DNA from: an uncultured virus (IMG/VR IMGVR_UViG_3300037189_011323)
Taxonomy: Duplodnaviria > Heunggongvirae > Uroviricota > Caudoviricetes
DNA length: 55,100 nucleotides
Reading direction: 5' to 3' (one strand)
IMG/VR virus record: IMGVR_UViG_3300037189_011323
Location: 62,001-117,100 of that record
In this document: positions 5,351-51,013 of the stretch, piece after piece
Layout: every line of letters starts with the position of its first letter
Numbering within the stretch: the stretch's first letter is position 1
Notes under the pieces: model-generated
What the model was told of the DNA's origin: nothing
What the model saw: only the letters and a program-made list of their open reading frames with translations
The model's database searches: none
Made by a program: the position numbers and the translations under genes

Positions 5351-5385
5351 AAGATGCCTTATGGATGGATAGGATTAGGCATCTT
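5351..5385 (-). promoter_or_regulatory. stop-codon hairpin with loop antisense to the gene's own RBS
   Basis: Stem aagatgcct 5351-5359 / aggcatctt 5377-5385; loop atggatagga 5365-5374 is the reverse complement of tcctatccat 6646-6655. Confidence 0.6.
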
Positions 5386-6637
5386 CGTAGTAAGCACTTA
5401 CACCAAATGGTGGTTCAATGGTCTTGTTATACTTGTTATGGATAATCCAAACAGTATCACAATAGTTTTCATCACCCCAAGAACCAAATGGTTCACCGTC
5501 AGTAAACACAATCAATAGCTTTGGTGAAACATCTTCGTGCTTCATCCAGTTCCAATTCACTTCAAAGTCGGTGCCACCAAAACCTTTAGGTTCATAGTTT
5601 ACAAGGTCATCACCATCAGCAGTGGTATATTCTTGTGGGTTATGGACCTGTGTATCAAAGCACCACACTTTAATCTTGTAATCATCATATGATTGCATAA
5701 TACCGTTGATTTCACCAAAGAAATTATTCAACTGTTCATTGCTGATAGAACCACTGGTATCAATGGCAACACAGACATCAATAGCTTGGTCCTTACGCAT
5801 GTTAGGCAGAACAAAACCATTGCTGAAATGTTTCTTATTAGGAACAGTCCAAGTGTAATCATTCTTAACAGTGGATTGGATTTGTTGTGTAATGAGTTCA
5901 CGCCAGTTGATTTTAGGTTGTGTGAGTTCATTAATCATACGCTTGACATTGCCAGGAACATTGCCAGCGCCAGCAGATTGTGCGGCGGCAAGCATTGCTT
6001 CCTTAAACTCATCCTTAATCTTTTGACGTTCTTCTTGTGAAAGTACGGGACGACCTTTGCCATCCTTCTCACCATCACCTTCGCCGCCACCGCCCTTGCC
6101 ATCCTTGTCAGCATCAAGATGGTCATCAAGCAATTGGTCAAGCAAATCTTCAATGTTGATTTTGGTAGCGTTCTTGATCAAGTCATCATAAACTTGTTCA
6201 AAATTCCATTCATCGTATTTGCGATCATGCAATACGGGAACAACAGTAATTTTTGCACCAAGGTTATACTTAATACAATCAGCATTAACAACATAATCCA
6301 TTGCGATGTTGGCAATGTCACGTTGTTTGCCAATACCACGGTTGATATGGTCATATGCACAATGAAGCAATTCGTGACAAAACAAAAACATCATTTGGTT
6401 TGTAGGCAACTTGAGGATAAAGTCACTGTTGTAATAAAAGTGACGACCGTCAGTTGCGGCAGTGGTCAGCCAGCTATCGGCATTAACCAATTTTAGTCGC
6501 ATGGCAAGATTGCCGAAAAAAGGTTGTTTAAGAACCAGTGCAATACGAGCCTTGAGAATTGCTTGACGTGCGTTGTAATCTACCGTAGCATCAATAGTAT
6601 CGGACAGTTTGCCACCACCCTGTTTAACTTTAGCCAT
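5375..6637 (-). CDS. VWA-domain / HExxH metallopeptidase protein (DUF2201-like), partner of the AAA ATPase
   Basis: TAATDG, HELLH (HExxH), DTSGS MIDAS, GGTDF, VFTDG; start MAKVKQ at 6637 with AGGAG SD. Confidence 0.85.
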   Translation of the reverse strand: MAKVKQGGGKLSDTIDATVDYNARQAILKARIALVLKQPFFGNLAMRLKLVNADSWLTTAATDGRHFYYNSDFILKLPTNQMMFLFCHELLHCAYDHINRGIGKQRDIANIAMDYVVNADCIKYNLGAKITVVPVLHDRKYDEWNFEQVYDDLIKNATKINIEDLLDQLLDDHLDADKDGKGGGGEGDGEKDGKGRPVLSQEERQKIKDEFKEAMLAAAQSAGAGNVPGNVKRMINELTQPKINWRELITQQIQSTVKNDYTWTVPNKKHFSNGFVLPNMRKDQAIDVCVAIDTSGSISNEQLNNFFGEINGIMQSYDDYKIKVWCFDTQVHNPQEYTTADGDDLVNYEPKGFGGTDFEVNWNWMKHEDVSPKLLIVFTDGEPFGSWGDENYCDTVWIIHNKYNKTIEPPFGVSAYYEDA

Positions 6638-6661
6638 AATTAATCTCCTATCCATATATAC

Positions 6662-6689
6662 ATAATACCACAGAATTATATTATGTCAA
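6662..6689 (-). promoter_or_regulatory. sigma70-type early promoter
   Basis: TTGACA (6684-6689), 16 bp, TATTAT (6662-6667) with TGn extension. Confidence 0.7.
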
Positions 6690-6692
6690 GAG

Positions 6693-6730
6693 AAAAAATA
6701 GGGGGGAAGTGTTGCGGCACTACCCCCCTA
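6693..6730 (-). terminator. intrinsic terminator downstream of the AAA ATPase gene
   Basis: tagggggg/ccccccta stem with inner agtg/cact pairing and minus-strand U6 tract. Confidence 0.75.
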
Positions 6731-6763
6731 ACCGTAGGAAAAATCACACTTTTTTCCTACCTT

Positions 6764-6803
6764 ATCTCGCCCTCACTGTGATGGAGAACGATAGGGGCGA
6801 GAT
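6764..6803 (-). promoter_or_regulatory. stop-codon hairpin with loop antisense to the GAUGGAGAA RBS
   Basis: Stem atctcgccc 6764-6772 / gggcgagat 6795-6803; loop tgatggagaac 6779-6789 is the reverse complement of leaders at 7936, 8229 and 9043. Confidence 0.6.
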
Positions 6804-7930
6804 TAATCACGCACTGCCGCAAGGATGAAGTCACCGTTTTTAGCATGATATTCCTTATAGTGCTTCATCTTGCTAGTCTTCATTGGCAACTTGTAGTTAC
6901 GGAGAATAGTAGCAAGCATCATAACTTGTAATTCCGTATCCATGTTGTCAAGGAAGAAGCGGAACACGTTGTCAAGTTCATCGTGCCAAGCGGTATTCTC
7001 GTTGTCTTTCATACGTTCACCACCACGACGATCATAGCTATCCTTGAGTTCATAGCAACATGAAACCGTCAGCGAATACTTTGCACCAATGTCTTTCGCT
7101 TTGAGTTCCTTAACCTTACCGTTAAGAATATCGGTAGGATTAGGCATCTGGCTTGCTACCTTACGATGTGCGGCAAACTTAAGTGCAACACCTTCACCAA
7201 CTGTACCAGACACAAGGTCATTCAGTTCAGTATCTACAAGGTCTTCTTGCAAGAGATCGCTAACAAACGACCACGAACGAGGCGTAGCAAACGATGCACC
7301 ACTTTGGCGAGGATCAAAGTTGAACAAATCATTCTTGTTGCAAGTTACATAAGCAACAACGTCAGGATTGATAGCATTGTTCAATGCCCAATCATTCCAC
7401 GACTCGAAGTCAACACGCAAGTTCAAGTGAACAAAACGGTTGGCAAGTGGCGATGGCATACGATACACAACACCACGGTCAGTGTCACGGTTACCAGCGG
7501 CAACGATAACAACATTGTCAGGAAGTTCATACGTGCCAACACGACGATTAAGAACAAGCTGATAAGCGGCAGCTTGTGTTGCTGGTGCAGCAGAGTTCAT
7601 TTCGTCAAGGAAAAGAACCACAACAGGATACTTGGCAGCTTCTTCTGCTGTAGGCAGATCGGGTGGAGCATTCCACATGGCATTGCCAACGGTTGGGTTG
7701 TAGTAAAGAACACCTTTAAGATCGGAAGGGTCCATAAGTGCAAGACGCAAGTCATACAGCTTGCCGCCCATGCTTTCACAGATATCGGCAACAAGTTCGG
7801 ACTTGCCAATACCAGGTGCGCCCCACAAGAAGATAGGACGTTTACGCTTCATACATACCATAATTTCACGCTTTGCAGAAGCGAGAGTAACGGTGCGCAC
7901 TTCGGAAAGTGCCTCATTTGGTTTAGCCAT
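6803..7930 (-). CDS. MoxR/dynein-related AAA+ ATPase
   Basis: Walker A GAPGIGKS, Walker B LFLDE, AAGN sensor, PLANRF arginine finger, TPRSW. Confidence 0.9.
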   Translation of the reverse strand: MAKPNEALSEVRTVTLASAKREIMVCMKRKRPIFLWGAPGIGKSELVADICESMGGKLYDLRLALMDPSDLKGVLYYNPTVGNAMWNAPPDLPTAEEAAKYPVVVLFLDEMNSAAPATQAAAYQLVLNRRVGTYELPDNVVIVAAGNRDTDRGVVYRMPSPLANRFVHLNLRVDFESWNDWALNNAINPDVVAYVTCNKNDLFNFDPRQSGASFATPRSWSFVSDLLQEDLVDTELNDLVSGTVGEGVALKFAAHRKVASQMPNPTDILNGKVKELKAKDIGAKYSLTVSCCYELKDSYDRRGGERMKDNENTAWHDELDNVFRFFLDNMDTELQVMMLATILRNYKLPMKTSKMKHYKEYHAKNGDFILAAVRD

Positions 7931-7935
7931 TGTAA

Positions 7936-7958
7936 TTCTCCATCAGTTGACTATAACT
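7936..7958 (-). repeat. conserved early-gene leader, copy 1
   Basis: ttctccatcagttgactataact; near-identical at 8229-8251, related at 9044-9066. Confidence 0.85.
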
Positions 7959-7959
7959 C

Positions 7960-7987
7960 AATATAACACATTATTTGTAGTTGTCAA
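7960..7987 (-). promoter_or_regulatory. sigma70-type early promoter
   Basis: TTGACA (7982-7987), 16 bp, TATATT (7960-7965). Confidence 0.7.
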
Positions 7988-8226
7988 GCAGAAATTTTTT
8001 GCAAATCTGCAAGCGCACCTTGCAACCAACGTGATTTCTGGACAAGTGCCTTACCAGACAATTCACCGTCACAGCAAAGGTTTTCGGGCGAAAGTTCAGC
8101 TTCAAGACTATCTTGCAATTCTGCAATATCACGACTTGTCAAATTATTGACATCCATTTGACGCTTGTTGAAAATAGCGTTCCAAACGTTCTGCTTATTG
8201 ATATAGGCTTCAAGATTACGCATCAA
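7984..8226 (-). CDS. hypothetical early protein
   Basis: Own promoter and GGAGA SD; LSPENLCCDGE motif. Confidence 0.75.
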   Translation of the reverse strand: MMRNLEAYINKQNVWNAIFNKRQMDVNNLTSRDIAELQDSLEAELSPENLCCDGELSGKALVQKSRWLQGALADLQKISA

Positions 8227-8228
8227 TT

Positions 8229-8251
8229 TTCTCCATCAATTGACTATAACT
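8229..8251 (-). repeat. conserved early-gene leader, copy 2
   Basis: ttctccatcaattgactataact, 22/23 identical to copy 1. Confidence 0.85.
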
Positions 8252-8252
8252 T

Positions 8253-8280
8253 ATATTACCACAGGATTAGGGGTTGTCAA
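8253..8280 (-). promoter_or_regulatory. sigma70-type early promoter
   Basis: TTGACA (8275-8280), 16 bp, TAATAT (8253-8258). Confidence 0.65.
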
Positions 8281-8924
8281 GCACTTTTTTCAAGACGAAC
8301 ATAATGTAAACGGGTTACATTTTTGTCATCATGTTTATAGATACGTGCGGTCAAGCTGATTTTCTCGTTATTTTCCAAGCGGTTAGCATGTGGAAAACTT
8401 ACAAGATTTCCGTCAATTTCAGCCGTATGATACCATTTACCATAATTATGGCTATAAACGGCACTTACAATTGTTACGGTTGCCTTTAACCCATCACCAA
8501 TTTGTCCAATATGACGGCTGTTTTCGCCAATTTGTGCAATCTTTTCAACGGCTTGCTCACGCTTTACAGCGTTATTATAGGAACTAGGAACGCTGGCAAT
8601 AACCGCCAAGTTACGGTAATCGTCAGTTTTAAATTCTTTTTGTTCTGTTAAAAGAACGCAAGTTTTCCAGTATTCTTGTAATGTGCCAGCAATAAGTTCA
8701 ATCATCTTGCTGTCAAGATATTCACAAATTTGTTCAGCAAATTCAATATCTTGCGGTAAAATTTTAAAGTTTTCCATTTCTGGATTAAGAAATTCACGCA
8801 TAAGTGCGGCATTGCTTAATTCACCCTTGGTGTTGTCAGCATCATGCCGTTTGATATAACGACCATTTGTCCGTTGTGCCGCACAAGCGGCAGACATAGC
8901 ATGTTTCAAGCCAATAGTGGTCAT
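8277..8924 (-). CDS. hypothetical protein with possible C-terminal OB-fold
   Basis: C-terminal SRHIGQIGD...ISLTARIYKH...VTRLHYVR beta pattern. Confidence 0.65.
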   Translation of the reverse strand: MTTIGLKHAMSAACAAQRTNGRYIKRHDADNTKGELSNAALMREFLNPEMENFKILPQDIEFAEQICEYLDSKMIELIAGTLQEYWKTCVLLTEQKEFKTDDYRNLAVIASVPSSYNNAVKREQAVEKIAQIGENSRHIGQIGDGLKATVTIVSAVYSHNYGKWYHTAEIDGNLVSFPHANRLENNEKISLTARIYKHDDKNVTRLHYVRLEKSA

Positions 8925-9037
8925 TTTGCACCTTTATGCTTTGGTTTACGGGTATAGCTGCCCTTGCCCTTACGGGGGGTGACAATTTTTTGACGGTATT
9001 TGGGGTCAGCCAATGACTTGGCAATAAGGCTACGCAT
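8921..9037 (-). CDS. arfA: ArfA-like alternative ribosome-rescue factor (38 aa, not in ORF track)
   Basis: Manual translation MRSLIAKSLADPKYRQKIVTPRKGKGSYTRKPKHKGAK matches the ArfA core DPxxRQ...KGKGSYxRKxKH; GGAGA SD, own promoter, ATGA overlap with downstream gene. Confidence 0.75.
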   Translation of the reverse strand: MRSLIAKSLADPKYRQKIVTPRKGKGSYTRKPKHKGAK

Positions 9038-9043
9038 CGCTAG

Positions 9044-9089
9044 TTCTCCATCAATTATGCTATAATATCATATAATTATGCCTTGTCAA
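9044..9089 (-). promoter_or_regulatory. early promoter plus leader copy 3
   Basis: TTGACA (9084-9089), 16 bp, TATTAT (9062-9067); leader ttctccatcaatt. Confidence 0.7.
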
Positions 9090-9487
9090 GACATATTTTG
9101 GATGGCTTGGCTTAAATTATTGTCACAGAGTGCTAACATCATGCTTAATTCACTATCCATAAGGAATAATTCACCCTTGCTCATTTGGTAAAACCACGGA
9201 TGATTATGGTAACGATCCATTAGAACAAGTTCTTTACCATTGATTTGATATTTTTGCCTATCAATATGATGTTCATAGAATTTATATCCATAACTGCGCA
9301 ATAGTTCAAGGGCAGTATTGTTGAGCCTAAATCCAAAATTTTTATTATTATTATACCAATAAAGAATAAAAATATTTTTTTGATTTATGTGAGGAATAGG
9401 CGCATCTTGTCCATGTGACAAATGATATAATTCGTGTGTCCAATCAATTTTGGATTTATTATTTTGTTGGGTAAACGATTGGGCCAC
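9086..9487 (-). CDS. hypothetical protein
   Basis: 133-aa ORF in operon context. Confidence 0.65.
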   Translation of the reverse strand: MAQSFTQQNNKSKIDWTHELYHLSHGQDAPIPHINQKNIFILYWYNNNKNFGFRLNNTALELLRSYGYKFYEHHIDRQKYQINGKELVLMDRYHNHPWFYQMSKGELFLMDSELSMMLALCDNNLSQAIQNMS

Positions 9488-21830: not shown

Positions 21831-22184
21831 TTAAACGCTTTTTGGACGATTTTGACGGTCATGCTTTAATTTAGCAGCAAAGGCATCTGGGGTCAATTTA
21901 TATTTTGCAATAAAAGCATCATGTAAATCTTTTGGGTCAACTTGGAAAGCCACTGATATGTTTTGCATTAAATCATCAATGCTTGCATAATCTATTTGTT
22001 CCATATCATCTAATTGGCTTCCAAGACGTGCAACAGCACCCATCATATTCTTACCTTCTACACCTCTTACAACAGTGTCATACTTCCAACGTGCTGCCAT
22101 AAGACCACGTGCACCAGCACTTATAGGATTGCGTCCTTGAATCGTAGTGCTCATTGCTGCTTCAATAATTTCTTTAACTTTCAT
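21831..22184 (-). CDS. putative internal head protein
   Basis: N-terminal MKVKEIIEA capsid-targeting-like leader. Confidence 0.55.
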   Translation of the reverse strand: MKVKEIIEAAMSTTIQGRNPISAGARGLMAARWKYDTVVRGVEGKNMMGAVARLGSQLDDMEQIDYASIDDLMQNISVAFQVDPKDLHDAFIAKYKLTPDAFAAKLKHDRQNRPKSV

Positions 22185-23137
22185 TAGGTTGCCATAATTT
22201 TTTTAAGTAATGTGGGAGCAAATAAATTTTTAACTAATTCAGATTTGTAAATTTCAGAAGTCATTTCTTTAAATTTTTTCATTTCATCTACACCAAATTC
22301 AAAAAACCCACTGCATCTATTTTTGCTTTGCTCTACAAATTTTTCACTATCCTTAATAGTTTCTGTTCTTTCAATTAAAGCGGTTTTTTTAGCAGTTTCT
22401 TTAAATAATTTTTGATCATTTTCTGATAGTGAATTCCAAAAATCATTTGATATAACAATAGTTGTTAAAAACAAACTATGATTTGTATTTGTGATAAAAG
22501 GTGTTTTGTGTTTGACTTTATCAAATCTGACCAAAGTTGTTTCACCACCATCAAAATTAATATCTTTCATTCTTTCAAAGTGTGCGGATAAATCATCACC
22601 ATGTTCATCTAAAATCGCATTTGCTCCTAAAATATCATAAACCTTTTTTGTAATTGGGCTTTCTGAACAACTAACTGTTTTACCCTTAATATCATCTATT
22701 TTTTTTAAAGGTTGATTACTTACCATGATACGGAATCCACCGCTGTAAGTAAAAGCTAATCCTCTCATTGCAGTATTTTTACCTAATAATTCTAAAAGAT
22801 TTTCTCCTATAGAACCATCAAGAACTCTGGAAGCATGGTCATGGTCTTGAAACAAAAATGGCATATCAAATATATAAAAGTTATTAAATTTTGAACCTAT
22901 TGCCGTAGTTTGAAACTGTGCCATTTGAAATTTGTTGTCACGTAATGATTTATAAAAACTTGCACTATGATTATAACTAGGATTAGAAAAAAATTCTTTT
23001 CTAGTTAAAACTTCAATATTGATTCGTCCACTTGTCTCTTTTTCAATTATATTTTTAAAAGTATTTGCTGATCTTAAAAATAGATTAAGAGGTTCATGAG
23101 CAACAACCCAACGACAATTTATTGAAGTTTCAGTCAT
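22184..23137 (-). CDS. TRAP-transporter DctP-like solute-binding protein without signal peptide
   Basis: ETSGRINIEV, FDMPFLFQDHDHASRVLDG, GLAFTYSGGFR, TNHSLFLT, FWNSLS; TAAATA at 23155-23160. Confidence 0.8.
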   Translation of the reverse strand: MTETSINCRWVVAHEPLNLFLRSANTFKNIIEKETSGRINIEVLTRKEFFSNPSYNHSASFYKSLRDNKFQMAQFQTTAIGSKFNNFYIFDMPFLFQDHDHASRVLDGSIGENLLELLGKNTAMRGLAFTYSGGFRIMVSNQPLKKIDDIKGKTVSCSESPITKKVYDILGANAILDEHGDDLSAHFERMKDINFDGGETTLVRFDKVKHKTPFITNTNHSLFLTTIVISNDFWNSLSENDQKLFKETAKKTALIERTETIKDSEKFVEQSKNRCSGFFEFGVDEMKKFKEMTSEIYKSELVKNLFAPTLLKKIMAT

Positions 23138-28950: not shown

Positions 28951-31900
28951 TTAAACTTCACGCAAAGACAATCTACCCGTCTCATATTCTCTTGTAAATG
29001 TATCAAGAAGTGCTTGACCACCAGCTTCTTTATAGTGTTTTACCAATATTTCATATGCTTCCGTTGGTGTATCAGCACCAACTTCAATAAATCGATCAAC
29101 AGAGGTATCTCTATATAATGCAAACACTTTACTTGCATTTGCACGACCAATACGGTCTACAATTACATTAGAACGCTGTGGCTGTGGTTTTGGTTGTGGT
29201 TTTGGTTTTCTTACACCAGTTTTATAATCAGTTGGTGTTACCAGATGATATGGTCCATTACCATTACTAATATTATTTGCAATGTTGCGATAACCGCCAT
29301 TATTAAGATTTGCTAATGCACTTTCTTCACTATCGCCACGAACACGAACAAATACAAAGTTATTTGTATCACTTACAACATAGAACTCAATCTTGCCGCT
29401 ACCAACAACAACAATGTGATTTATATCTTGCTTGCCTATGGCTTGACGTGCGTTTCTGCTGCCCCAATGCAATCTACGATTACCACGATAAACAATCATA
29501 TTGTTATCAAATGCATTTGCATAATAATCAGCAATTTCTGCAACTTGATCTTGTGTATATTTTGCTGGATCAAAACGTGCAATAATATGGTCATCATAAT
29601 CTTCAATGCGATATGCAAGAGTATTGTAAACCTGTTCAGCATTAGGTTTGCCATCCAAACCGTTTCGCTCAATTTTTATGATTTCACCATAAAGTGATGC
29701 AATGTTATTATCACTATAATTATATCCTATAACATTCAAGTAATTTTTAACATCTTCTCTGCTAACATTTGGTATAAGATTTTTTACAGCTTCAAATTCT
29801 ATTTCATCAGTGTTTGCTTGATTTGGATAAAGTCCTAATCTGCTATACTCACGATTCTTTAAACCATTGCCCTGCATATAAATCGTTGTGACGTAAATGT
29901 TAAAATATGGGAACTTTAACAAATATGCTTGTGTATCCATATTGCGTTCATTTAGCCAATCATATGCAAGTTTAATCATTTCATATAGTTGTTCACCATG
30001 AACTTCTACTACTTCATCACCTAATTTAGTTTCAATTTTAGCAGTAATTTTACCTTGACCGATTGGTTTAACTGGCTCACGTGACTTACGAACTGCTTGA
30101 ACTTGACGCACCAATTCTTCTTTGTCAATATCACCAGTAACATATTTTGCAAATATATCAACTGTGCTACTGTCTTTCTTTACGCTATCTACAATAAGTT
30201 TATAAAACTTCTTGTGATATTCTTGTTTGCTATCTTCTGGATCAGCAGCCGCAGCCATAGCACGAACATAACGTAACATTGTGTTACGGATTTCATCATA
30301 CTTTTCAAAGTAATTGCCACCAGCACTACGAAACTCAATATAATTAGACTTGATGTTTACACTTACGTAACGATCACCTTTAGTTCCACTGATAATTTTG
30401 TTTACTTCTCTATTAGTTTGGTCAAGTAAACCAGCACGTGCATCATCCAATATCTTTGGTAGTGACTTACGGAAATCACGTGTTTCTGTTGCTTTATATG
30501 CTTGGTCAAACATACTCTTTGTCCAACGGCTGTTTAGTCGTTCAAAACGGTCTAATACATACTTGTCACCAAGCAACAATATAAGTTTAAGGTGATTTAT
30601 ATTTGCCATAGTTTGGTCAGGAACACTAACACCAATATGGAAACCTGTTGTGCGATTAGTATAATAACGGTTACGCTTTGCCCATGTGAATACGTTATTA
30701 AGTGCTTCAAGTGCATCATCAAGTAACATTGGTGGTGATACAAGTTCTACACCGCCATCTTCAAAGTCTTCTGGACTATCTAAACTGCTATCTGGTTCAA
30801 ATATCCAGTAATCACCACGACTTGTGCCGTGATAACCACTGCTTTCAACTGCGCTATAACCTGTTGCATTTTCAAAACTATTCACTAAATCATCATAAGT
30901 TACATCACCTGAACTACTGCCATCAGTCATATATGGCCAATCAAGACTATCAACATTTGTTTCACGATTAATGTAACGTGCAAAACCTTGCATTGTGTCA
31001 ATTTCGTGGATTCTTAAAAAGTCTTGCCAGTTTTCTTTATCGTTTTCATTTTCCCAATTTTCACGAACAGAAGATTCGGCTTCATCTTTTTGTTCTTCGG
31101 TTACTTCACTGTAATCATCTACGCCTACTTCATCAGCAATTGCTTGTTTCCATTCATCGCTGTTTTCATATTCATAATATTGATCACTTACATAATCGCT
31201 AAAGTTTTCATAGAATGCTTCTAATGCACGTTCTACACTGCGACGACTATTGCCATAATCACCTTCTGTAAAGAAGTCTATAATCATACGTTGGCGATCT
31301 TTGTAAGTTTCATCTGCTGGAAAATCTTCATCTTGATCATAATCTGGCTCTGGGTCTTCTTCTTCACCTTGTAGACCAGGTACATACATTTCAGTTTCAA
31401 AGCCAACACGCATTTGTTGTGCAAACTCGCTCTTGGCAAATGCTTCCAAACTCTTTGGATTCATTTTTACTTCTGCAAGGAAAGATTCTGTTAGACTTTC
31501 TTCAATGCTTTCGTTGCGTTCTGGAACTGCTACAATAGTATAACCTGGTCCCATATTATGTTCAGTTGCCCAACTTTGTGCATAACGACGAGCAGCAGTT
31601 TCACTTGCAGCAGTAAATGTATGGTAAACACCGCCCATACTACCTACAATATTATATGTAGTTTCTCCTTGCGGTGTAGCACGATGCTGTGCAATAATTA
31701 GTGGTGGTATTGTATTGCCAGCAATATCATAACCACGCTGTATTTCCCAATCTGCATATTGTCGTTGTTGTTCTGGTTGTGGTCTTGGTTGTGGAATTAG
31801 TTGACCTTGCGCATCCCATAGATTATTGTTGTTTGGTGTTCTAATTGCAATATTTGCTAATGATAGACCACGTTGTTGTGCAAAACTTTGTGCTGCTTGA

Positions 31901-34900
31901 CTTGCTTGGTAAAAACTTCGTGCTTGTGTTGCTAATAATTCTGTGCCATCGCTTCGGTTTACAACAACATATGTTCCGCCAGATTGTTGTTGCTGTACTG
32001 GCTGTGCTGATGCACCGCCAACAGTTCTCCATTCCCACCTGCCATTTATAAGACGATTATCATCTGCCCATTGTCTTGCATATTGGTATGCTGCTGCTTG
32101 ACTGTCAGCAGTAAAACGATGAACAACACCGCCTTGCGATAGTATTTCAAATTGTTGTCCTGACTGTGATGCTTGTTGTGTTTCATTAGGTCTAAACAGA
32201 TTGTATGAATCAAGTGCTATATTATTTCTATTTGCATATTCACGAGCTGCTGCAATAGCCTCTTGGGTAGTAGTATAAGTTCCTTGTGCAATTACTCTAT
32301 CACCACTACTGGTTCGCATTTGGAATACAGCGCCAGCAGTTTGGTATGGCATTTGCGGAATAGTTGCAGCAGTTTGTGTTTGTCCAACAGTTTGTGCATC
32401 TGTTTCACGGCGTGTCATAAATTGCGGAACATCAATCATTTCACCACTTGGTGCTTGTAGTTGAACACTATCAGGATAACCACCATCACGTGCAATTCTG
32501 CGACCATAACCACGAGCACGATCCATTACATCAAGTAGTGTGCCAAACATAGTTACTTGACGTGAACCGTTTATAAACAACATAAAGTTTTGTTGTGCGT
32601 CTTGTGGTGTTTGTGTTTGTTGTGGTTCGCTACGGCGTGTTTCGTTGGCTGTAAAAACATTATAATATGTATTAACACCCATATAATTGTGTTTTAATTC
32701 ATAATTATTATAATTTACACCACGACCACGCAACCACCTAAATGCTAAATCAGAAGCATCGTATTTGTTATCTGCACGAACAATCTGCACTGCTAATTCT
32801 GTATCTTTATAAACTATTTCATAACGATTGCTACCACTGCCAATACCAGTGTCACTTGCAACAAACGCCAGTGGTGGTAGTGCAGGCATTAAACCACTTA
32901 CATACGTAGCATTTTTCAAACGAACCAGCATTACATCTTGTAGATAATAGCCACTGTCACTGCTTGTCCAATTACGTGCATCGTCATAAACTTCATAAGG
33001 ATCATTGCCATAAAACTTTTTAAGAACTGTTCCGTTCTTGGTGCGAACTTCATATTCCTCTACACCAGAACCTTTTTTATCACGACTAATAGCACGTTTA
33101 CGCTGTTCATTACGAACATGTGATAACAGTGCAGTCTTTGGAATAGTGCCGCTTACATATTGACTAAAATACTTGATTGTATCTGTATCTTCTTTTGGTG
33201 CATTAGTTGCTAATAATTTATAAAACTTCTTTGCATATTCTTGCTTTTCTGCTTCTGGATCAATCGCAATACTCAATGCATAAACTGTGCGGTAAAGGGT
33301 GTTTATAACTTTATCTAAATCCATATCTAACCAATTACCGCCAGGACTACGAATCTCAATACGATTATCTTTGGTGTTGATACTGGTAAACTTATCAGTA
33401 TTAGTATCGTGAATCATCTTACTAACAGTTTTGTTTAAGTTAGTGCGAATCATACTAATTGCTTGTTCTGCTTTGCCTGGATTACGCTTGATTACAGTGG
33501 CTACTTTATCTAATGCACTTACTGCATAATTATTACCAAGACGACCGAATGTATCAAGAACATACTTGTCTCCTAAAAATAGTGCCATCTTTACATAATC
33601 AAGATTTTGCAAACTATAACCAGGCAGACTTACATTCATATGCAGACCAGTGGTTTTATTGGTATAAGCATTTCCACTCTTTGCCCACGCTGCAACTTTC
33701 TTTATAACATCTACCATTTGCGGAATAGTTAGTGGTGGACTTACAAACTCCCAACCTTCACCACCACGACCGCTGCTTGCATGCAAACTACTATCTGGTT
33801 CAACCTTAAAGTAATTAGGTTTTTGGCGTTGGGTGTGATAACCACCACTTACTTGTATATCATAACCTACGGCTTGACTAAAACTACGTGCAGGCGGACC
33901 ATCGCCACGACCACGACTATTATCATAATCTGGTTCTGTCCAGTGCGGCCAATTTATAGTTCCACTAAAATAATTGTGAATGTCACTATATGTATCACCA
34001 CCAATAACACTATCTAAAAAGTCTTCTACAAGTGAGCCGTCTTCGCTTGCTTTATCATACCACTTTTCATAGTTTTCACGAGTGAAGCGCATGTAAGCAT
34101 CAATTGGTGGTATTTCAGGAAATAGTTCACCTTGCTTTTCATAATCACGACCATAGGTTTTATCTAACCATACTTGATATCGTGTATCAGTTTGTCCACT
34201 TTCTTGACTATTTGCCCAATTATCAAACGCAATTTTAGCATAAGTTTCATATTCACCAGCAATACTTTCTTGAACTTGTTGTATATCACGGCGAGTATTA
34301 TGGTCACCACGGAAGAATTCCATAATTGAATTTTGTAAATCAGTTAGATTATCTGCAAATATGTTTCCATCTTGGTCATAATCTGGTTCGCTGTCAAAGT
34401 CTTCGTATGGATCATAGTCATCGTCATCTTCAAACTCTGTAACGATAAGTTCAAACTCTAAACCAGCACGTGCAAGTGGCAATGCATCAACTGCTTTTTT
34501 AAGTGCAGTAGGACTCATTGCAACTTCATTTAATAATTCTTCTGTAATCAAACTATCGCCAAGCACTACATCTTCAAGCCAAGGAATCTTTGGACTTTGT
34601 TGATCTCCACGTGGATATTCATCCCATGGAAACTTTGCTACTGCACGGTCAGTAAGAGTAGGACCACCACCAACTGTTCCAAGAATACTTGGTGCGTGTT
34701 CGCTTTGCTTTTGTGGTCCAAGTAAGCGCATAAACTTTACCTTGTCTCTTGGCATTACATAATCATAAGAAAGTTGGTTATCAATTGTTCCATCAATAAT
34801 TATATCTACTGCAATATTTTTGAATCCAAGTGCGGTTTGTGCATATACACGATAAGTCTTTCGCAGATCAGGCAACGTTCCTTGAACAAAGAATGTGACA

Positions 34901-37488
34901 GTTGCTTTTGCAAATCGCACATATCCAAGTTTAAATGCTGCTTCATATCCATCTATACCTTGGCTATGTAGATAACCTTCGTGATATTCTGGTGGAACAT
35001 AAACAACTTTACGATCAGGCAATATCCAACCATGTGTTTCATTTGGGTCAAGTGCTTCTTCAATGCTTTCAGCCTTTTGCATCCACTTACTTTTAATGTA
35101 TTCAATTACACCCATAGTATCTTTAATATTATTCTGCTGCATGAATCGCACAATCTTGCGACCATTTTCATAATCAGTATCACCAGGCTTTCGTGAATTG
35201 CTTAATTCTCTACGTAAACCAAAGTCATCACCATCAATATTATAATAACGCAAGTCAAACAATATCTTGCTTGCTTCTTTGCTTAATGTTGAACGATTCT
35301 GTCCAAATAACAATTCAACATAAGGAGCCAAATAACTTTTTCTGCTATATTGCTTACGTGATGGTTGTGGACCTTTAAGGATATTCTTTGCCGCACCAAT
35401 TGTAATACTCTTTGCAGTATTTTGTAATCTCCATGCTTCTTCATCGGCATAAAGATATGTTGGAATACCACGCTTTTTTGCAGCAAGTAATACACGGCGC
35501 ACCGCTGGACTTTGGAACTCATGTTGTTCTTTAATTAAAACATGAACACTCATTACTGGTGTAATTGCAATAGTGCCATCACGACTGAATACACGGTCTT
35601 CACTTTCACGATGACGTGTAGTGCTTTGGTCATTCCAATAATCAATTGGTTTTACTTTATAATTTTGGTTTAACCAACGACCATTCAATACAAACATTAC
35701 AGCACTATTACCAACATATTTGTGATAACCACCGCTACGACTGCGTGTAGTGCTTAAAAAGTATGGATAACCTTTTGGTTGTAGTTTATATTCCCAATCA
35801 CTGCCAACAGTGTTGCTCAACTTAAACTCACCACTTGTTAATATTTCAGCGGCAGCAGTTGTTCCTGTGTAATGGTATAGAACATCAGTTGCTAATTCTG
35901 TTAGTGGTTCAACGCCTTCATCAAGTTGTGATTGTATACTTTTAACAATTTGTGGTGATGCTTTTCCGCTTGTCCATTCAGTTTCAATACTGCCATCAGG
36001 ATTCATCCAGAATAATGCTGCTTCACCATTGTCAATAGCATCAAGATAACGATCAGCAACATAGAAATTATGATGGAAATCATTTTCTGCAGCTTTTTCA
36101 TATGTATAGGTTGCTAATACATGACCATCACGTGTATCAAATACACCAATGTAAAATGGTTTACCACGGAAACTACCAACATTCTTGTTGGTGCTTTCTT
36201 CTAAATCTTTACGATGACTACGCTTGTAGTATGAACACCAACCATTAGGCGCAATCTTGCCTTTTACCGCACTACAACCATGAGGAGGACGCCACATAGT
36301 GCAGTGGTCGCAACGTTGACCATTGCGAGGCATTGCCTGATACTTTGCTTCGGCTTTGGTTGATTTTTCTGCGGCTTCTTCAACTTTCTTTTGTGCAAGA
36401 TGCATTATATCTTTTTTAGGAACAACATAAACATCAATGGTTTTCTTGTTCTCTACATCAATCGCTTTTTTCATACGATTTAAACCATCAGCAACACTTA
36501 AATGACCATCATCATTTTGTATTACAAGTAGCGGATAACGTGTGTCAGCATTCTGCATACGCTCACGCTGTGCTGCATTATCTTGCCACCAACTTAAATC
36601 GTGTTTAATTTTATCTAATGGAAAATTCTTGTGCAAATATTGTGGTTTAGATTGTGCAAACTTTAATACCGCTTCTACACTAAACTGATTGCCAGCATCA
36701 TCGCCAAACTTACTACCGTGAAAGTAATCTTTTGCTTCATACTTTGGTAAACCGTATAAATCTAAATCAACACCGTGTGTAGAACCATAATAGGTATCAT
36801 CTACATTTGGTTTATATGGTTTACGACCAACCTTTACAAGTTTTGGTAAATCATCCCAATCACCACCAATGCCTGGTGCTTCTGTAATGTTTTCTTCAAC
36901 TGCTTCGCCTAATCCCAAACCAATACGCACTGCTTGCATAAGTGTTTTGCCATCTACCATGATGTTTTGTGGGACTTGTGTAGCACGTTCAAAAGCATCT
37001 GCATCACCACTCTTTGCTGCTTCACGTGCATTAGTAGCACTGGTTAGTCGTGGACTTTCAACAAATGTAAGTGGTTCAAATTTATAAAAACCGTGTGCAA
37101 CTTCTTTGCCATTATATTGTTCAAGCACTGGACGCATACTTGCCATATCATCTTCGCCAGCAACAAAGGTTGCACTACGGAAACCTTTTTCATAAAGATA
37201 AGCAGCGGCTTGTAGGAATGTTTTAATATTTGGATCTTCTACGATATGACCTTTGGTTTCTGGATATAATGTATAAAGCCAACGTAGTTTTAAATCATAT
37301 GGCAGTGGATTTTTTTTCTTGTCTTGTGACTTACTTAAAAATCCTGCCCATGCACCATTCTTTGCACTGGTAATTGTAGTTTGGATTAATCCCTGATGAC
37401 CAAAATGTGGTGGATTTAGTCTGCCAAAGAAGAAAGAGATATGTGGTCCGCTTGCTTCTTTTAATGTGCTGTTAATAATTGTCATCAT
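28951..37488 (-). CDS. 2845-aa multidomain protein: HIGH nucleotidyltransferase, ParB-like, HiPIP-like, ART-like, two amidoligase domains, short repeats
   Basis: FGRLNPPHFGH...SATNAR; VADGLNR; CDHC...C...GWC; YHYT..STT..ESE; two copies of G(L/F)E(F/T)E...EPDSSL...E(F/L)VSPP...TG(L/F)H...IE(I/F)RS. Confidence 0.85.
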   Translation of the reverse strand: MMTIINSTLKEASGPHISFFFGRLNPPHFGHQGLIQTTITSAKNGAWAGFLSKSQDKKKNPLPYDLKLRWLYTLYPETKGHIVEDPNIKTFLQAAAYLYEKGFRSATFVAGEDDMASMRPVLEQYNGKEVAHGFYKFEPLTFVESPRLTSATNAREAAKSGDADAFERATQVPQNIMVDGKTLMQAVRIGLGLGEAVEENITEAPGIGGDWDDLPKLVKVGRKPYKPNVDDTYYGSTHGVDLDLYGLPKYEAKDYFHGSKFGDDAGNQFSVEAVLKFAQSKPQYLHKNFPLDKIKHDLSWWQDNAAQRERMQNADTRYPLLVIQNDDGHLSVADGLNRMKKAIDVENKKTIDVYVVPKKDIMHLAQKKVEEAAEKSTKAEAKYQAMPRNGQRCDHCTMWRPPHGCSAVKGKIAPNGWCSYYKRSHRKDLEESTNKNVGSFRGKPFYIGVFDTRDGHVLATYTYEKAAENDFHHNFYVADRYLDAIDNGEAALFWMNPDGSIETEWTSGKASPQIVKSIQSQLDEGVEPLTELATDVLYHYTGTTAAAEILTSGEFKLSNTVGSDWEYKLQPKGYPYFLSTTRSRSGGYHKYVGNSAVMFVLNGRWLNQNYKVKPIDYWNDQSTTRHRESEDRVFSRDGTIAITPVMSVHVLIKEQHEFQSPAVRRVLLAAKKRGIPTYLYADEEAWRLQNTAKSITIGAAKNILKGPQPSRKQYSRKSYLAPYVELLFGQNRSTLSKEASKILFDLRYYNIDGDDFGLRRELSNSRKPGDTDYENGRKIVRFMQQNNIKDTMGVIEYIKSKWMQKAESIEEALDPNETHGWILPDRKVVYVPPEYHEGYLHSQGIDGYEAAFKLGYVRFAKATVTFFVQGTLPDLRKTYRVYAQTALGFKNIAVDIIIDGTIDNQLSYDYVMPRDKVKFMRLLGPQKQSEHAPSILGTVGGGPTLTDRAVAKFPWDEYPRGDQQSPKIPWLEDVVLGDSLITEELLNEVAMSPTALKKAVDALPLARAGLEFELIVTEFEDDDDYDPYEDFDSEPDYDQDGNIFADNLTDLQNSIMEFFRGDHNTRRDIQQVQESIAGEYETYAKIAFDNWANSQESGQTDTRYQVWLDKTYGRDYEKQGELFPEIPPIDAYMRFTRENYEKWYDKASEDGSLVEDFLDSVIGGDTYSDIHNYFSGTINWPHWTEPDYDNSRGRGDGPPARSFSQAVGYDIQVSGGYHTQRQKPNYFKVEPDSSLHASSGRGGEGWEFVSPPLTIPQMVDVIKKVAAWAKSGNAYTNKTTGLHMNVSLPGYSLQNLDYVKMALFLGDKYVLDTFGRLGNNYAVSALDKVATVIKRNPGKAEQAISMIRTNLNKTVSKMIHDTNTDKFTSINTKDNRIEIRSPGGNWLDMDLDKVINTLYRTVYALSIAIDPEAEKQEYAKKFYKLLATNAPKEDTDTIKYFSQYVSGTIPKTALLSHVRNEQRKRAISRDKKGSGVEEYEVRTKNGTVLKKFYGNDPYEVYDDARNWTSSDSGYYLQDVMLVRLKNATYVSGLMPALPPLAFVASDTGIGSGSNRYEIVYKDTELAVQIVRADNKYDASDLAFRWLRGRGVNYNNYELKHNYMGVNTYYNVFTANETRRSEPQQTQTPQDAQQNFMLFINGSRQVTMFGTLLDVMDRARGYGRRIARDGGYPDSVQLQAPSGEMIDVPQFMTRRETDAQTVGQTQTAATIPQMPYQTAGAVFQMRTSSGDRVIAQGTYTTTQEAIAAAREYANRNNIALDSYNLFRPNETQQASQSGQQFEILSQGGVVHRFTADSQAAAYQYARQWADDNRLINGRWEWRTVGGASAQPVQQQQSGGTYVVVNRSDGTELLATQARSFYQASQAAQSFAQQRGLSLANIAIRTPNNNNLWDAQGQLIPQPRPQPEQQRQYADWEIQRGYDIAGNTIPPLIIAQHRATPQGETTYNIVGSMGGVYHTFTAASETAARRYAQSWATEHNMGPGYTIVAVPERNESIEESLTESFLAEVKMNPKSLEAFAKSEFAQQMRVGFETEMYVPGLQGEEEDPEPDYDQDEDFPADETYKDRQRMIIDFFTEGDYGNSRRSVERALEAFYENFSDYVSDQYYEYENSDEWKQAIADEVGVDDYSEVTEEQKDEAESSVRENWENENDKENWQDFLRIHEIDTMQGFARYINRETNVDSLDWPYMTDGSSSGDVTYDDLVNSFENATGYSAVESSGYHGTSRGDYWIFEPDSSLDSPEDFEDGGVELVSPPMLLDDALEALNNVFTWAKRNRYYTNRTTGFHIGVSVPDQTMANINHLKLILLLGDKYVLDRFERLNSRWTKSMFDQAYKATETRDFRKSLPKILDDARAGLLDQTNREVNKIISGTKGDRYVSVNIKSNYIEFRSAGGNYFEKYDEIRNTMLRYVRAMAAAADPEDSKQEYHKKFYKLIVDSVKKDSSTVDIFAKYVTGDIDKEELVRQVQAVRKSREPVKPIGQGKITAKIETKLGDEVVEVHGEQLYEMIKLAYDWLNERNMDTQAYLLKFPYFNIYVTTIYMQGNGLKNREYSRLGLYPNQANTDEIEFEAVKNLIPNVSREDVKNYLNVIGYNYSDNNIASLYGEIIKIERNGLDGKPNAEQVYNTLAYRIEDYDDHIIARFDPAKYTQDQVAEIADYYANAFDNNMIVYRGNRRLHWGSRNARQAIGKQDINHIVVVGSGKIEFYVVSDTNNFVFVRVRGDSEESALANLNNGGYRNIANNISNGNGPYHLVTPTDYKTGVRKPKPQPKPQPQRSNVIVDRIGRANASKVFALYRDTSVDRFIEVGADTPTEAYEILVKHYKEAGGQALLDTFTREYETGRLSLREV

Positions 37489-42141: not shown

Positions 42142-42857
42142 TACGCTTTACTCTCTTTCTTAACATGTTTATAAATCTTATTGACGCCATCCTGAAACAT
42201 CATATACATAAGTGGAATATTGTCACCACTTTTGGCAAATACACGAACAGCACCATAATAATAACCACCACTACCAATATAACCATCCACAATTTTCTCA
42301 CACCAACGGTCAAGTTCATATGTCATGCTTAAATCGTCACTGTTGGTTTTTACAAAATTATATAATTCAATTAGATTATCTTTCTGTGTTGATCTACCAC
42401 CTACTCTCCAACCCCAATAGGTATGAAAATCAATTTGATATTTGATATCTGGATCATACTTTATTGCACTGATAAGTTTAACATCAACAGCAATATTGTC
42501 AAGTTTATCCAACTCATCAACATATTGTATATTACTTGTTGTTAAACCATAAACATGTCCAAGCATTTCTGGATCATCAAGAAACGCATCAAGAAGTGAC
42601 GTTTCATTTGTAAAAACACGCAAACATCCTTCTTTACGCACACGTGCGGTTGGATCAAGTGCTAATACTTTTTTTCGCAAAGGAGTTGCATGAGTATAAG
42701 AAAAATTCCTTATACTACCATGTGGATCGCCTAATTCCAAACGGAATCTATACTTGTTCTTATACCAAGTTTTAGCTTCGCTTGTTACACGCCAATGTGG
42801 AATTACGTTTTTAAACTTTTCCTGATATTCAATCAGCGTTTGTTCTGTCACTGCCAT
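42141..42857 (-). CDS. hypothetical protein
   Basis: 238-aa ORF coupled to neighbours. Confidence 0.7.
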   Translation of the reverse strand: MAVTEQTLIEYQEKFKNVIPHWRVTSEAKTWYKNKYRFRLELGDPHGSIRNFSYTHATPLRKKVLALDPTARVRKEGCLRVFTNETSLLDAFLDDPEMLGHVYGLTTSNIQYVDELDKLDNIAVDVKLISAIKYDPDIKYQIDFHTYWGWRVGGRSTQKDNLIELYNFVKTNSDDLSMTYELDRWCEKIVDGYIGSGGYYYGAVRVFAKSGDNIPLMYMMFQDGVNKIYKHVKKESKA

Positions 42858-45063
42858 TTTCTGCCACCAATTCTAACTTGTCATCAAGCAAGTCTACTTT
42901 AATTGTAACACTGTTCTGTGATTTGTCAAACAGTATTTTCTTTGCAAGTGGAACCTTGATGTGTTCATGAATTGTGCGGCTCATTGGTCTTGCACCAAGC
43001 AATGGGCTATAACCCTTCTTGACAAGCCAATCATAGGCAGCGTCAGTAATATCAAGTGTGATATTTTTACCTGACATCTGTGCTTCAAGTTCAGCAATGA
43101 ACTTTTCAGCAATCTTACGGATAGTTTTGCTATCCAGTTTGTTGAATGTAACAATCGCATCTACACGATTGCGGAACTCTGGACGGAAATGTTCTTTAAC
43201 AGCAGTTTCAACAACATCACTACGATCTTGGCTGCCAAAGCCAATAGCAAGACGTTCACTATCAGCTGCACCAAGATTACTGGTCATAATCAGCAATGAT
43301 TGGCGACAATCAGCACGTTTACCATTTGTGCCAGTGATGAAACCCTCATCCATAACTTGCAACAATACTTGTGCAACATCAGGATGTGCCTTTTCAATTT
43401 CGTCAAATAATATAATACAATGTGGGTTCTTGGCAACTTCACTGATAAGCAATCCACCAGCAAGATTAGCATCATCATAACCAACATAACCTGGCGGAGA
43501 ACCAATTAATCGTGAAATGCTATGCTTTTCTTGATATTCACTCATATCAAAACGTAGCAGTTTCATATTAAGTTTTTCACTTAACTGTTTAGCAAGTTCT
43601 GTTTTACCAGTGCCAGTTGGACCAAGGAACAAGAAGGAACCAACGGGCTTGTTATCAGCCTTCAAGCCAGCTTGACTTACCCATACACGATCAAGAACTG
43701 CATCAACCGCCGCATCTTGATTATAAACTTTACGTTTAATTTCTTTGTCAAGAGTTGGCATAAGTTTCTGTGTATTCTCTGCACCAAGCTGTGACTCTGG
43801 AATACCAGTGATACGGCTCAATTCACGGCGGATTTGTGCAACATCAATAGTGCGTGATCCACGTGACTGTGTGCGGCGTAGTGCTGCGGCACTATCAATA
43901 AGGTCAATAGCCTTATCTGGTAGACGTTTATCTGCTTGATAACGATGACTTAACATCACTGCTTCTGTGACAGCAGCATCTGTAATCTTAACATTATGAA
44001 ATGTTTCATAATTGGATTTAATGCCAAGCATAATTGTCTTACAATCTTCAATGCTTGGTTCACCAACACTCACACGATTAAACCTACGCATAAGCGCACG
44101 ATCTTTTTCAAAGTGCTTGGTATATTCTTCCCATGTAGTAGAAGCAATAACCTTGAAATCACCACGAGCAAGTGCTGGCTTAATCATGTTGCTTAAATCA
44201 ACACTGCTATTGCTACCACTGCCAGCACCATTCATTTGGTGTGCTTCATCAATAAACAGAATAACATTACCTTGTTCAGTTGCGGCGTTCATAATTTCTT
44301 GTAGACGTTCTTCAAAATCACCACGATATTTGGTACCTGCAAGCAAGCTACCAATATTCAAACTGTATACTTCATGTCCACGTAGGAACTTTGGAACATC
44401 ATCATGCACAATGTTGTAAGCAATACCCTCTGCAATAGCAGTTTTACCAACACCAGGATCACCAACCAACATAACGTTGCACTTGTTCTTACGTGCAAGA
44501 ATTTGTGTCATATCTGCAATTTCACTTGCACGACCAATGACAGGATCAATCTTGCCATCACGCACAAGTTCATTTAAATTTGTGCAATATTCATCAAGCG
44601 CATTACCACCAACACCAACTGCTTTTTTATTTGTCTTTTTATATAATTCTAAAACTTTTTCTGGTTCAACACCATACTTGTTAAGGAAATAAGCAGCATG
44701 GCTTTGTGTTTCCTTACTGATGCTCAAATATAGGTCAGTAATATGAATTTGCTGACGACCAAGTAGAATAACTTGGGTAAAGGCACGGTTGAATACACGT
44801 TCAAGACTTTGTGTTTTCTTGGGTTCTGCACTATCACTATCTTTTACTACTGGAATATTATCAAAGATATAATTTTCCAATTCTAATACGAGATTATCAA
44901 CATCTACACCAATTTCTCGTAGGGTTTTGCTGAAACCACGTTCGTGGAGCATACTAACCAGTAGATGTTCTACGGTGTAATATTGGTGGTTGTTGTCAAT
45001 AGCAAATTGCTTTGCTATTTTCACTACTTTTTCAAGGTCGCCGTTGCTGCTAAATTGTGTCAT
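42829..45063 (-). CDS. clpA: ClpA-like Hsp100 ATP-dependent unfoldase
   Basis: Clp N domain; GDPGVGKT and GPTGTGKT Walker A motifs; KYRGDFEER, LPDKAIDL, FRPEFRNR; IGF loop (LAIGFG); no ClpB middle domain. Confidence 0.9.
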   Translation of the reverse strand: MTQFSSNGDLEKVVKIAKQFAIDNNHQYYTVEHLLVSMLHERGFSKTLREIGVDVDNLVLELENYIFDNIPVVKDSDSAEPKKTQSLERVFNRAFTQVILLGRQQIHITDLYLSISKETQSHAAYFLNKYGVEPEKVLELYKKTNKKAVGVGGNALDEYCTNLNELVRDGKIDPVIGRASEIADMTQILARKNKCNVMLVGDPGVGKTAIAEGIAYNIVHDDVPKFLRGHEVYSLNIGSLLAGTKYRGDFEERLQEIMNAATEQGNVILFIDEAHQMNGAGSGSNSSVDLSNMIKPALARGDFKVIASTTWEEYTKHFEKDRALMRRFNRVSVGEPSIEDCKTIMLGIKSNYETFHNVKITDAAVTEAVMLSHRYQADKRLPDKAIDLIDSAAALRRTQSRGSRTIDVAQIRRELSRITGIPESQLGAENTQKLMPTLDKEIKRKVYNQDAAVDAVLDRVWVSQAGLKADNKPVGSFLFLGPTGTGKTELAKQLSEKLNMKLLRFDMSEYQEKHSISRLIGSPPGYVGYDDANLAGGLLISEVAKNPHCIILFDEIEKAHPDVAQVLLQVMDEGFITGTNGKRADCRQSLLIMTSNLGAADSERLAIGFGSQDRSDVVETAVKEHFRPEFRNRVDAIVTFNKLDSKTIRKIAEKFIAELEAQMSGKNITLDITDAAYDWLVKKGYSPLLGARPMSRTIHEHIKVPLAKKILFDKSQNSVTIKVDLLDDKLELVAENGSDRTNAD

Positions 45064-45069
45064 AGTCCT

Positions 45070-45104
45070 AATATAACATGTATTCAGTAGTTGTCAAGTA
45101 TTTA
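45070..45104 (-). promoter_or_regulatory. adjacent early (TTGACA-16-TATATT) and late (TAAATA) promoter motifs for clpA
   Basis: tgtcaa 45092-45097, aatata 45070-45075, tattta 45099-45104. Confidence 0.55.
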
Positions 45105-50623: not shown

Positions 50624-51013
50624 TTAAGTTGGGTTAATACCAAAGGTTAAATCTTCTGTTGGCATTTCATCGCTGCTCATAAGAATATCTTTGGGATCAA
50701 CCAGACGAACAGTGGTAGTTTCACCGCTTTCATCTGTCATATCAAGACCACGAGTCCAACGACCATGTGCAACAAGAATATATTCACCTGGTTTTACATC
50801 TTCTTGTAAACGACCAACAGCAACAACTTGTGCCCAACGTGGACGAATACCTTGTCCTTTCTTGTCATCATCAATAATGATGATACCACCAAGTGTCATA
50901 CGCTCACCAAAATCCATGTCCTTTACAAGAACATTATTTTTAGTTGGTATAATTTTTCGATAGTCTTCACGAACATGGTGTAGACTACTTTTTGCTTTAT
51001 TGAGTTTTGTCAT
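50624..51013 (-). CDS. GroES-like co-chaperonin
   Basis: PTKNNVLV, TLGGIII, VVAVG, VKPGE, KDIL. Confidence 0.85.
   Translation of the reverse strand: MTKLNKAKSSLHHVREDYRKIIPTKNNVLVKDMDFGERMTLGGIIIIDDDKKGQGIRPRWAQVVAVGRLQEDVKPGEYILVAHGRWTRGLDMTDESGETTTVRLVDPKDILMSSDEMPTEDLTFGINPT

Follow-up and report, generated by a model that had tools for sequence, protein, structure and literature searches.

Among the small rescue factors that act through a release factor, ArfA of Escherichia coli is one of the closest known relatives of the gene reported here, and its mode of action has been described in the structural and biochemical literature. The basic C-terminus of ArfA, which includes the KH motif, occupies the mRNA channel; residues 25-30 supply an additional strand to RF2, and Pro23 together with Arg26 sets A1492/A1493; Ala18 is packed against Ile11 and C1914, and a regulatory role falls to the final 17-18 residues; the A18T variant recruits RF2 without opening or release, and A18C is active (PMC8012679, PMC5378476, PMC4245945, PMC8874680). 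It has also been described that the N-terminal minidomain of E. coli ArfA, which becomes ordered upon RF2 opening, activates RF2, and that Leu19, Leu24 and Phe25 contact RF2 Trp319, an arrangement that explains RF2 specificity (PMC5378476). In vitro, ArfA binds the 70S ribosome but not RF2 (PMC4245945). E. coli ArfA cut to 40 residues is inactive, the contacts of its aromatic residue 25 are not conserved in RF1, and ArfA/RF2 pairs from different species show low compatibility (PMC8012679). ArfT of Francisella works with both RF1 and RF2 (PMC8874680).

With respect to distribution, reviews assign ArfA to a subset of beta- and gammaproteobacteria, and a nucleotide-level survey of 15,000 genomes reported arfA in 0 of 2,376 Alphaproteobacteria (PMC11633108). 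ArfA has nevertheless entered the phage literature by name: g10 of Citromicrobium phage RXM is annotated as ArfA (PMC8953757), gp30 of Pelagibacter phage HTVC027P, whose transcription is high at 3 h and at 12-15 h, is called ArfA (PMC12753301), and several GenBank records of Brevundimonas jumbo phages carry the label on CDSs. The family assignment is automatic, and annotated phage members, one of them with published transcript timing, already exist. In their available text, the RXM and HTVC027P papers offer annotation and transcript timing only, and within the literature searched, mostly outside subscription journals and in part seen as excerpts, we found neither a published functional test of a phage ArfA nor a published discussion of an ArfA without the tail or the minidomain. 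A 2026 jumbo-phage review makes no mention of phage ArfA, and the word ArfA is absent from the current version of PMC10680825.

The gene described here lies in a 55,100-nucleotide stretch (the window) of a linear, 117-kb uncultured virus record that is 35% complete. It is a 38-codon open reading frame on the minus strand, running from an ATG at 9037 to a TGA at 8921 (8921..9037), and its assignment draws on the translation, on Pfam and PDB matches and on dN/dS. Pfam PF03889 (ArfA) matches the ORF with 37.4 bits (E 1.7e-9) against a curated cut-off of 25.5 bits, and the E. coli ArfA chains in the PDB (six solved sequences) match the peptide with E values of 3e-5 to 6e-5, with 16 of 30 residues identical between peptide positions 5-34 and E. 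coli ArfA when the PDB alignment is counted by eye. The NCBIfam models gave no match to the peptide, and a PHROGs search returned two families, both without assigned function. The peptide is strongly basic (13 K/R and 1 D/E) and lacks the GGQ motif of ArfB and class I release factors. A first-pass annotation of this DNA had proposed an ArfA homologue at this position: the ORF is real and its translation agrees exactly with the one given there, and the homology is borne out by the profile and PDB matches. The same annotation called the gene unannotated, which does not hold for the family, as JGI already names 5 of the 28 members of its 90% cluster ArfA.

Comparison at the residue level used a register in which peptide residue i corresponds to E. 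coli ArfA residue i+11 (full-length chain 5h5u), in agreement with the published numbering of Pro23, Phe25, Arg26, Gln27 and Lys34, so that the 38 residues are equivalent to E. coli positions 12-49. The residues of the RF2-recruiting strand and of the decoding centre are kept (P12, Y14, R15 and Q16), with Glu30 replaced by Val, and the basic C-terminal channel segment extends to position 49 with the K44-H45 equivalent present. On the other hand, the E. coli-type N-terminal minidomain (Thr7, Lys8, Ile11, Ala18) is missing, as the peptide starts at 12 and has Lys at 18, and the hydrophobic patch Leu19/Leu24/Phe25 reads Ser, Lys and Tyr, so that one of the three is kept. The peptide is a PF03889 member that lacks three E. 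coli-type features: the minidomain, the hydrophobic patch and non-stop control. The first-pass annotation had caught the loss of the tail and overlooked the missing minidomain and RF2-activating patch.

The reduction of the specificity patch to a single aromatic residue, together with the ArfT precedent of a factor that uses RF1 as well as RF2, raises the question of whether release-factor use has changed, with rescue proceeding through RF1 or through both factors. This appears unlikely, since the aromatic residue at 25 is an invariant Tyr in the phage clade and F/Y across the family, with contacts that are not conserved in RF1, and since RF2 of four alphaproteobacteria that carry a chromosomal short form retains both the SPF region and the switch-loop Trp.

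Upstream of the ORF, a sigma70-type promoter with -35 TTGACA, a 16-nt spacer and an extended -10 TATTAT (9062..9089, minus strand; 11 of 12 positions matched, with the TG of the extended -10) is the best of 11 promoter matches in 2.2 kb, a number that is by itself at chance level (shuffle mean 9.7). Its -35 element overlaps the stop codon of an upstream hypothetical ORF of 133 aa (9086..9487, minus strand), identified from the ORF list and in relatives, where it serves as a synteny marker. A similar promoter is found at most 75 nt upstream of the arfA-like gene in 28 of 28 carrier loci. The leader TGATGGAGA (9045..9053, minus strand) contains the Shine-Dalgarno sequence GGAG, 8 nt upstream of the ATG, and occurs in five copies in the 117-kb record, three of which, at 9053, 8238 and 7945, precede consecutive genes and stand each behind a TTGACA. 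The genes that share this promoter/leader cassette, which include an ORF of about 78 aa and a MoxR-type AAA ATPase (6803..8280, minus strand; Pfam match and cassette copies), form a probable early-gene block, and early expression of the arfA-like gene is suggested by the repetition of the sigma70-type cassette before three neighbouring genes. Within 5375-7930 of the window, the MoxR-type AAA ATPase is paired with a VWA/metallopeptidase protein (DUF2201), each behind its own sigma70-type promoter.

The ORF ends in an ATGA stop/start overlap, with a possible Shine-Dalgarno sequence AAGGTG at a short, 4-nt spacing in its last codons (8921..8934, minus strand). The second cistron (8277..8924, minus strand) encodes a conserved hypothetical phage protein of 215 aa, with a weak match to phrog_2319 and otherwise virus-only hypothetical clusters, which is probably translationally coupled to the arfA-like gene; the interval between this gene and the ATPase varies among relatives in length and content. 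As predicted from the layout, the 9062..9089 promoter drives a two-gene unit made up of the arfA-like and 215-aa genes. In relatives without the ORF (9 listed of 13), a similar promoter and Shine-Dalgarno sequence directly precede the 215-aa gene, and for this reason the earlier claim that the ORF has its own promoter and Shine-Dalgarno sequence stands as to the presence of both elements and is too strong as to "own", since they are shared with the downstream gene.

A TGA stop follows the core in 27 of 27 complete carriers and overlaps the next start codon in each of them, 14 as ATGA and 13 by 8 nt. No T run longer than 2 occurs in the ORF, no unusual RNA fold was found in it (z 0.46), and the arfA-like message can thus be regarded as an ordinary polycistronic mRNA. 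A hairpin with a U-run ahead of the stop was found in 0 of 16 distinct clade genes in a test at the sequence level, the only terminator-like site within the ORF belongs to the opposite strand, and a hairpin of -12.8 kcal is located 3' of the stop. A non-stop mRNA design was accordingly rejected for this gene, in which neither a terminator nor an unusual fold precedes the stop. The true stop after the core and the missing regulatory tail, both noted in the first-pass annotation, are in this way corroborated, there being no RNase III stem or terminator and a stop that overlaps the next start, an arrangement in which the peptide would be made without a tmRNA-controlled tail. The idea that the RF2-specific TGA (27/27) acts as a sensor of RF2 was dropped, because other short members end in TAA or TAG and the conserved TGA is explained by its overlapping the next start codon.

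Conservation was assessed in 55 related phage loci collected by anchoring on an upstream gene. The arfA-like gene is carried by 28 of them (27 complete copies, one cut), 13 have both neighbours without it, 4 are of insufficient length and 10 lack synteny, so that it is present in 28 and absent in 13 of 41 syntenic loci. All 27 complete copies have 38-40 codons. Among 11 distinct 38-codon relatives, variable columns fall on third, first and second codon positions 21, 8 and 3 times, respectively, and dN/dS is 0.12, a rough value from pairwise counts on kindred sequences that points to purifying selection. In E. coli numbering, Leu20, Tyr at 25, Arg26, Gln27, Lys34, Gly35, Gly37, Ser38, Tyr39 and Arg41 are invariant in the 11 distinct clade proteins, and the His of the KH motif is present in only 7 of them. 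To explain the absence of the gene from syntenic loci, 4 changes are needed on one neighbour-gene tree and 5 on a second, numbers not clearly below those for shuffled labels. An ORF that is missing from 13 of the 41 syntenic loci, with the 215-aa gene then driven directly by the same promoter and Shine-Dalgarno sequence, and whose absence costs 4-5 changes on the two trees, might be a passenger or leader kept merely to couple translation of that gene. This reading is very improbable, as it is largely refuted by the selection signal (dN/dS 0.12 along with family-specific invariant residues), and as the ArfA core is kept in each of the three types of junction with the downstream gene. From its substitution pattern, the ORF is a genuine conserved gene, accessory yet selected where present.

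The host and the translation partners were considered next to this. The complete 338-kb genome of a relative (G001), which has terminal repeats and is identical over the arfA-like gene and the genes beside it, identifies the source virus as a jumbo phage. This genome has 19 tRNA matches above cut-off, and neither tmRNA nor SmpB nor a member of the release-factor family (including PF00472) was found in it; phage-encoded rescue partners were rejected on these grounds, and the peptide would consequently act on host machinery. The MoxR ATPase has its nearest matches in Pseudomonas PA5oct-like phages (47%), and a search with DctP gave no usable host name. The only near-identical GTDB match (L079) was rejected as a host, because this contig measures 4.6 kb and matches a phage locus (L009) both in the gene and in the DNA downstream of it, and it is probably a mis-binned phage piece. 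Other features of these genomes include host-like genes at 22184-23137, 42829-45966, 48556-49311, 50624-51013 and 52834-53250 of the window (TRAP solute-binding DctP, Clp-type ATPase, DnaJ, PhoH, GroES-like and MazG) and a 2,845-aa ORF at 28951-37488 whose sole Pfam match consists of two amidoligase-like stretches. In the complete relative (L070:2472-2545), ARAGORN calls a tRNA-Thr with anticodon AGT, with a weak Rfam score; a tRNA-Thr with this anticodon is unusual in bacteria.

Short ArfA forms are widespread, accounting for 7,360 of 8,000 scored candidates and for 36 representatives at 50% identity. In IMG/VR, 302 of 457 pattern matches are short-form ArfA, and in GTDB genomes 419 of 550 were confirmed as ArfA-like with a short N-terminus. 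The best 80 GTDB matches are nearly all from Pelagibacteraceae, and among the 64 distinct proteins in this set, 62 have a tail of at most 10 residues and 61 have K/R at 18. At a loose threshold, 28 GenBank phage records match, some of them by chance or as host contigs. Among cultured phages, short ArfA-like ORFs above the Pfam cut-off and without annotation are found in Caulobacter phage Cr30 (L002:1498-1599), immediately ahead of a gene that precedes RNA ligase, and in Ralstonia phage RsoM2USA (L005:1001-1123). Roseobacter phage CRP-212 (MZ892988.1; L003:983-1108) has a 41-codon ArfA-like ORF (Pfam E 3.3e-8), in a different reading frame within the acidic C-terminal portion of the annotated gp38, which is apparently an overprinted gene. 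The short form is common and already carries database labels.

In a sample of 401 genomes from the class of an alphaproteobacterial record, 26 match and 25 of these look genuine, compared with 8 of 400 around a gammaproteobacterial centre, the profile used for both samples being biased to short forms. Some alphaproteobacterial-class ArfA-like ORFs (L251-L263) do without any KGKGS loop and represent a still shorter variant. The one Pelagibacteraceae chromosomal copy that was inspected lies among housekeeping genes, and four genomes with a chromosomal short form keep SmpB and have RF1 and RF2 as the only members of the release-factor family. In the SAR11 chromosomes retrieved, short forms as a rule end at a true stop codon, from which it follows that tail loss is not a phage invention. 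ArfB is present in 5 of 25 short-form carriers and 131 of 376 other genomes (p 0.19; this tally takes in two unpublished genomes, G041 and G216), and, with a size limit chosen post hoc, in 5 of 13 carriers and 113 of 167 others among genomes of at least 3 Mb (p 0.064; without those two). Co-avoidance of ArfB by short-form carriers is not shown in this alphaproteobacterial sample of 401 genomes.

Relatives with longer tails differ in the region before the stop. A hairpin of -8 kcal/mol or better with a U-run ending at most 50 nt from the core, ahead of the stop, is found in 26 of 32 long-tailed, unfused relatives, compared with 14 of 725 coding segments drawn at random from these loci, a count from which a motif filter had dropped 18 of 27 alpha-class, 1 of 8 gamma-class and 2 of 5 GenBank loci. 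At any distance from the core the figure is 27 of 32, the design occurs in 9 of 11 sequence clusters (70% core identity), and 0 of 115 short-tailed rows have such a terminator, in part for lack of room. Among 28 non-stop rows, 0 have Ile at 11 and 19 have K/R at 18, although these represent only two sequence clusters and one fused protein, with three genes fetched twice. One marine phage group with the design has K/R18, S19, R24 and F25, nearly the pattern of the 38-aa peptide; its terminator stands at a convergent junction and could serve the operon. The combination of a short N-terminus with a hairpin and U-run before the stop was seen in phages and alphaproteobacterial genomes alike (L001:1486-1668, which is RXM g10, the L189 group, L116, L138, L148, L240, L245 and L249). 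A terminator ahead of the stop would be the feedback design of a back-up rescue factor, as synthesis only upon tmRNA overload fits such a role.

These observations bear on whether the peptide might be an antagonist, that is, a rescue factor turned early inhibitor of host ribosome quality control, which would plug the mRNA channel, hold RF2 closed like ArfA(A18T), exclude tmRNA-SmpB or host rescue factors, or park ribosomes. Retention of the channel plug and the RF2-binding strand along with loss of the RF2-opening parts, the ability of A18T to bind and recruit RF2 without release, and escape from tmRNA control are all consistent with this proposal. Both the general proposal and its specific form as an early inhibitor are nonetheless improbable in our estimation, because the same residue pattern occurs in SAR11 chromosomes beside housekeeping genes, in genomes that retain SmpB, and because relatives with K/R18 and a polar residue 19 stand under the non-stop design, which suits a back-up rescuer better than an inhibitor feeding on its own stalling.

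In 15 rows, the ArfA-like module occurs as the fused part of a longer basic protein of a phage. In marine phages (L169, L170, L174, L181, L183, L188, L204, L228 and others) it stands between or before very basic modules, in fused proteins of 93-142 aa whose partner modules have no Pfam match. Such fusions, the variable KH motif and a K/R content of 13 in 38 residues would suit an ArfA-derived basic peptide that binds rRNA or other nucleic acid with no release-factor partner, in ribosome protection, hibernation or another RNA-binding role. There is little probability in this, given that the invariant L20, Y25, R26, Q27 and GxGSY exceed what mere charge would demand and that stand-alone relatives show the non-stop design.

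The gene is in our view probably a phage-encoded, minimal RF2-dependent rescue factor of the ArfA family under phage transcriptional control, a reading favoured because the same short N-terminus sits in SAR11 and other alphaproteobacterial chromosomes and because relatives show the non-stop design. As first cistron, it would be transcribed from the sigma70-type promoter, and phage transcription, rather than tmRNA, would govern the level of the peptide. By analogy with the E. coli structures, its basic C-terminal half (KGKGSY..R..KH) would plug the mRNA channel left empty in ribosomes that have stalled on broken messages, P12 and R15 (E. coli Pro23 and Arg26) would set the decoding-centre bases, and Y14-I18 (E. 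coli 25-29, with Phe25 first) would contribute a strand to RF2 of the host, with the GGQ of RF2 then releasing the chain. In the absence of the Ile11/Ala18 minidomain, opening of RF2 would be left to a short helix (I5, A6, L9) and Y14 alone, presumably as in the chromosomal short forms. The likely benefit would be that non-stop ribosomes are recycled fast in early infection, with no tagging and alongside host trans-translation, and an anti-defence role against stalling caused by host mRNA decay or defence nucleases is speculation. Against the rescue reading count the lost RF2-activating elements, the variable KH, the 13 of 41 syntenic loci without the gene, the species specificity of ArfA/RF2 pairs, and the fused basic phage proteins, in which another role is possible. 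The stop-terminated phage ArfA-like ORF of the first-pass annotation is confirmed as an observation, and the interpretation attached to it is partly supported.

If the peptide is active, ArfA-type rescue needs neither the N-terminal minidomain, which is the RF2 switch of the cryo-EM model, nor tmRNA feedback, and phages as well as bacteria of the SAR11 type employ a rescue factor of 38 residues, the latter in a class for which the survey reported 0 of 2,376 (PMC11633108). Two questions, phage-supplied ribosome rescue and minimal RF2 activation, are open to direct test with a cheap 38-mer and standard assays.

In comparison with known systems, the peptide shares with E. coli ArfA (YhdL; PF03889; PDB 5MGP, 5MDV, 5MDW, 5U4I and 5H5U) the core equivalent to residues 16-45, including Pro23, Arg26, Gln27, KGKGSY, Arg41 and KH, and GGQ is present in neither. 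It differs in the absence of residues 1-11 and in K18, S19, K24 and V30, and its gene, unlike E. coli arfA, is phage-encoded and accessory and lacks both the hydrophobic tail and, ahead of the stop, any RNase III stem or terminator. BrfA of Bacillus and ArfT of Francisella are likewise small rescue factors that depend on a release factor; the KH motif is present in BrfA too, and ArfT has no RNase III site and an mRNA level that is unchanged without tmRNA (PMC8874680), although both have little or no sequence homology to ArfA according to the reviews, on whose descriptions this comparison is based. RXM g10, HTVC027P gp30 and the Brevundimonas CDSs belong to the same Pfam family as the peptide, and none has the E. 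coli N-terminal arm; RXM g10 differs in its hairpin and U-run ahead of the stop, and HTVC027P gp30, which has a true stop right after the core, differs in being annotated with a longer N-terminus. The chromosomal short forms of Pelagibacteraceae and other Alphaproteobacteria, labelled ArfA by NCBI, have the A17/K18/polar-19/L20/K24/Y25 pattern in common with the phage peptide. Some larger alphaproteobacterial genomes, unlike the phage gene, retain a terminator ahead of the stop, whereas the SAR11 forms, which mostly end before KH and use TAA or TAG, reach a true stop where the core ends or shortly after it, as does the phage peptide.
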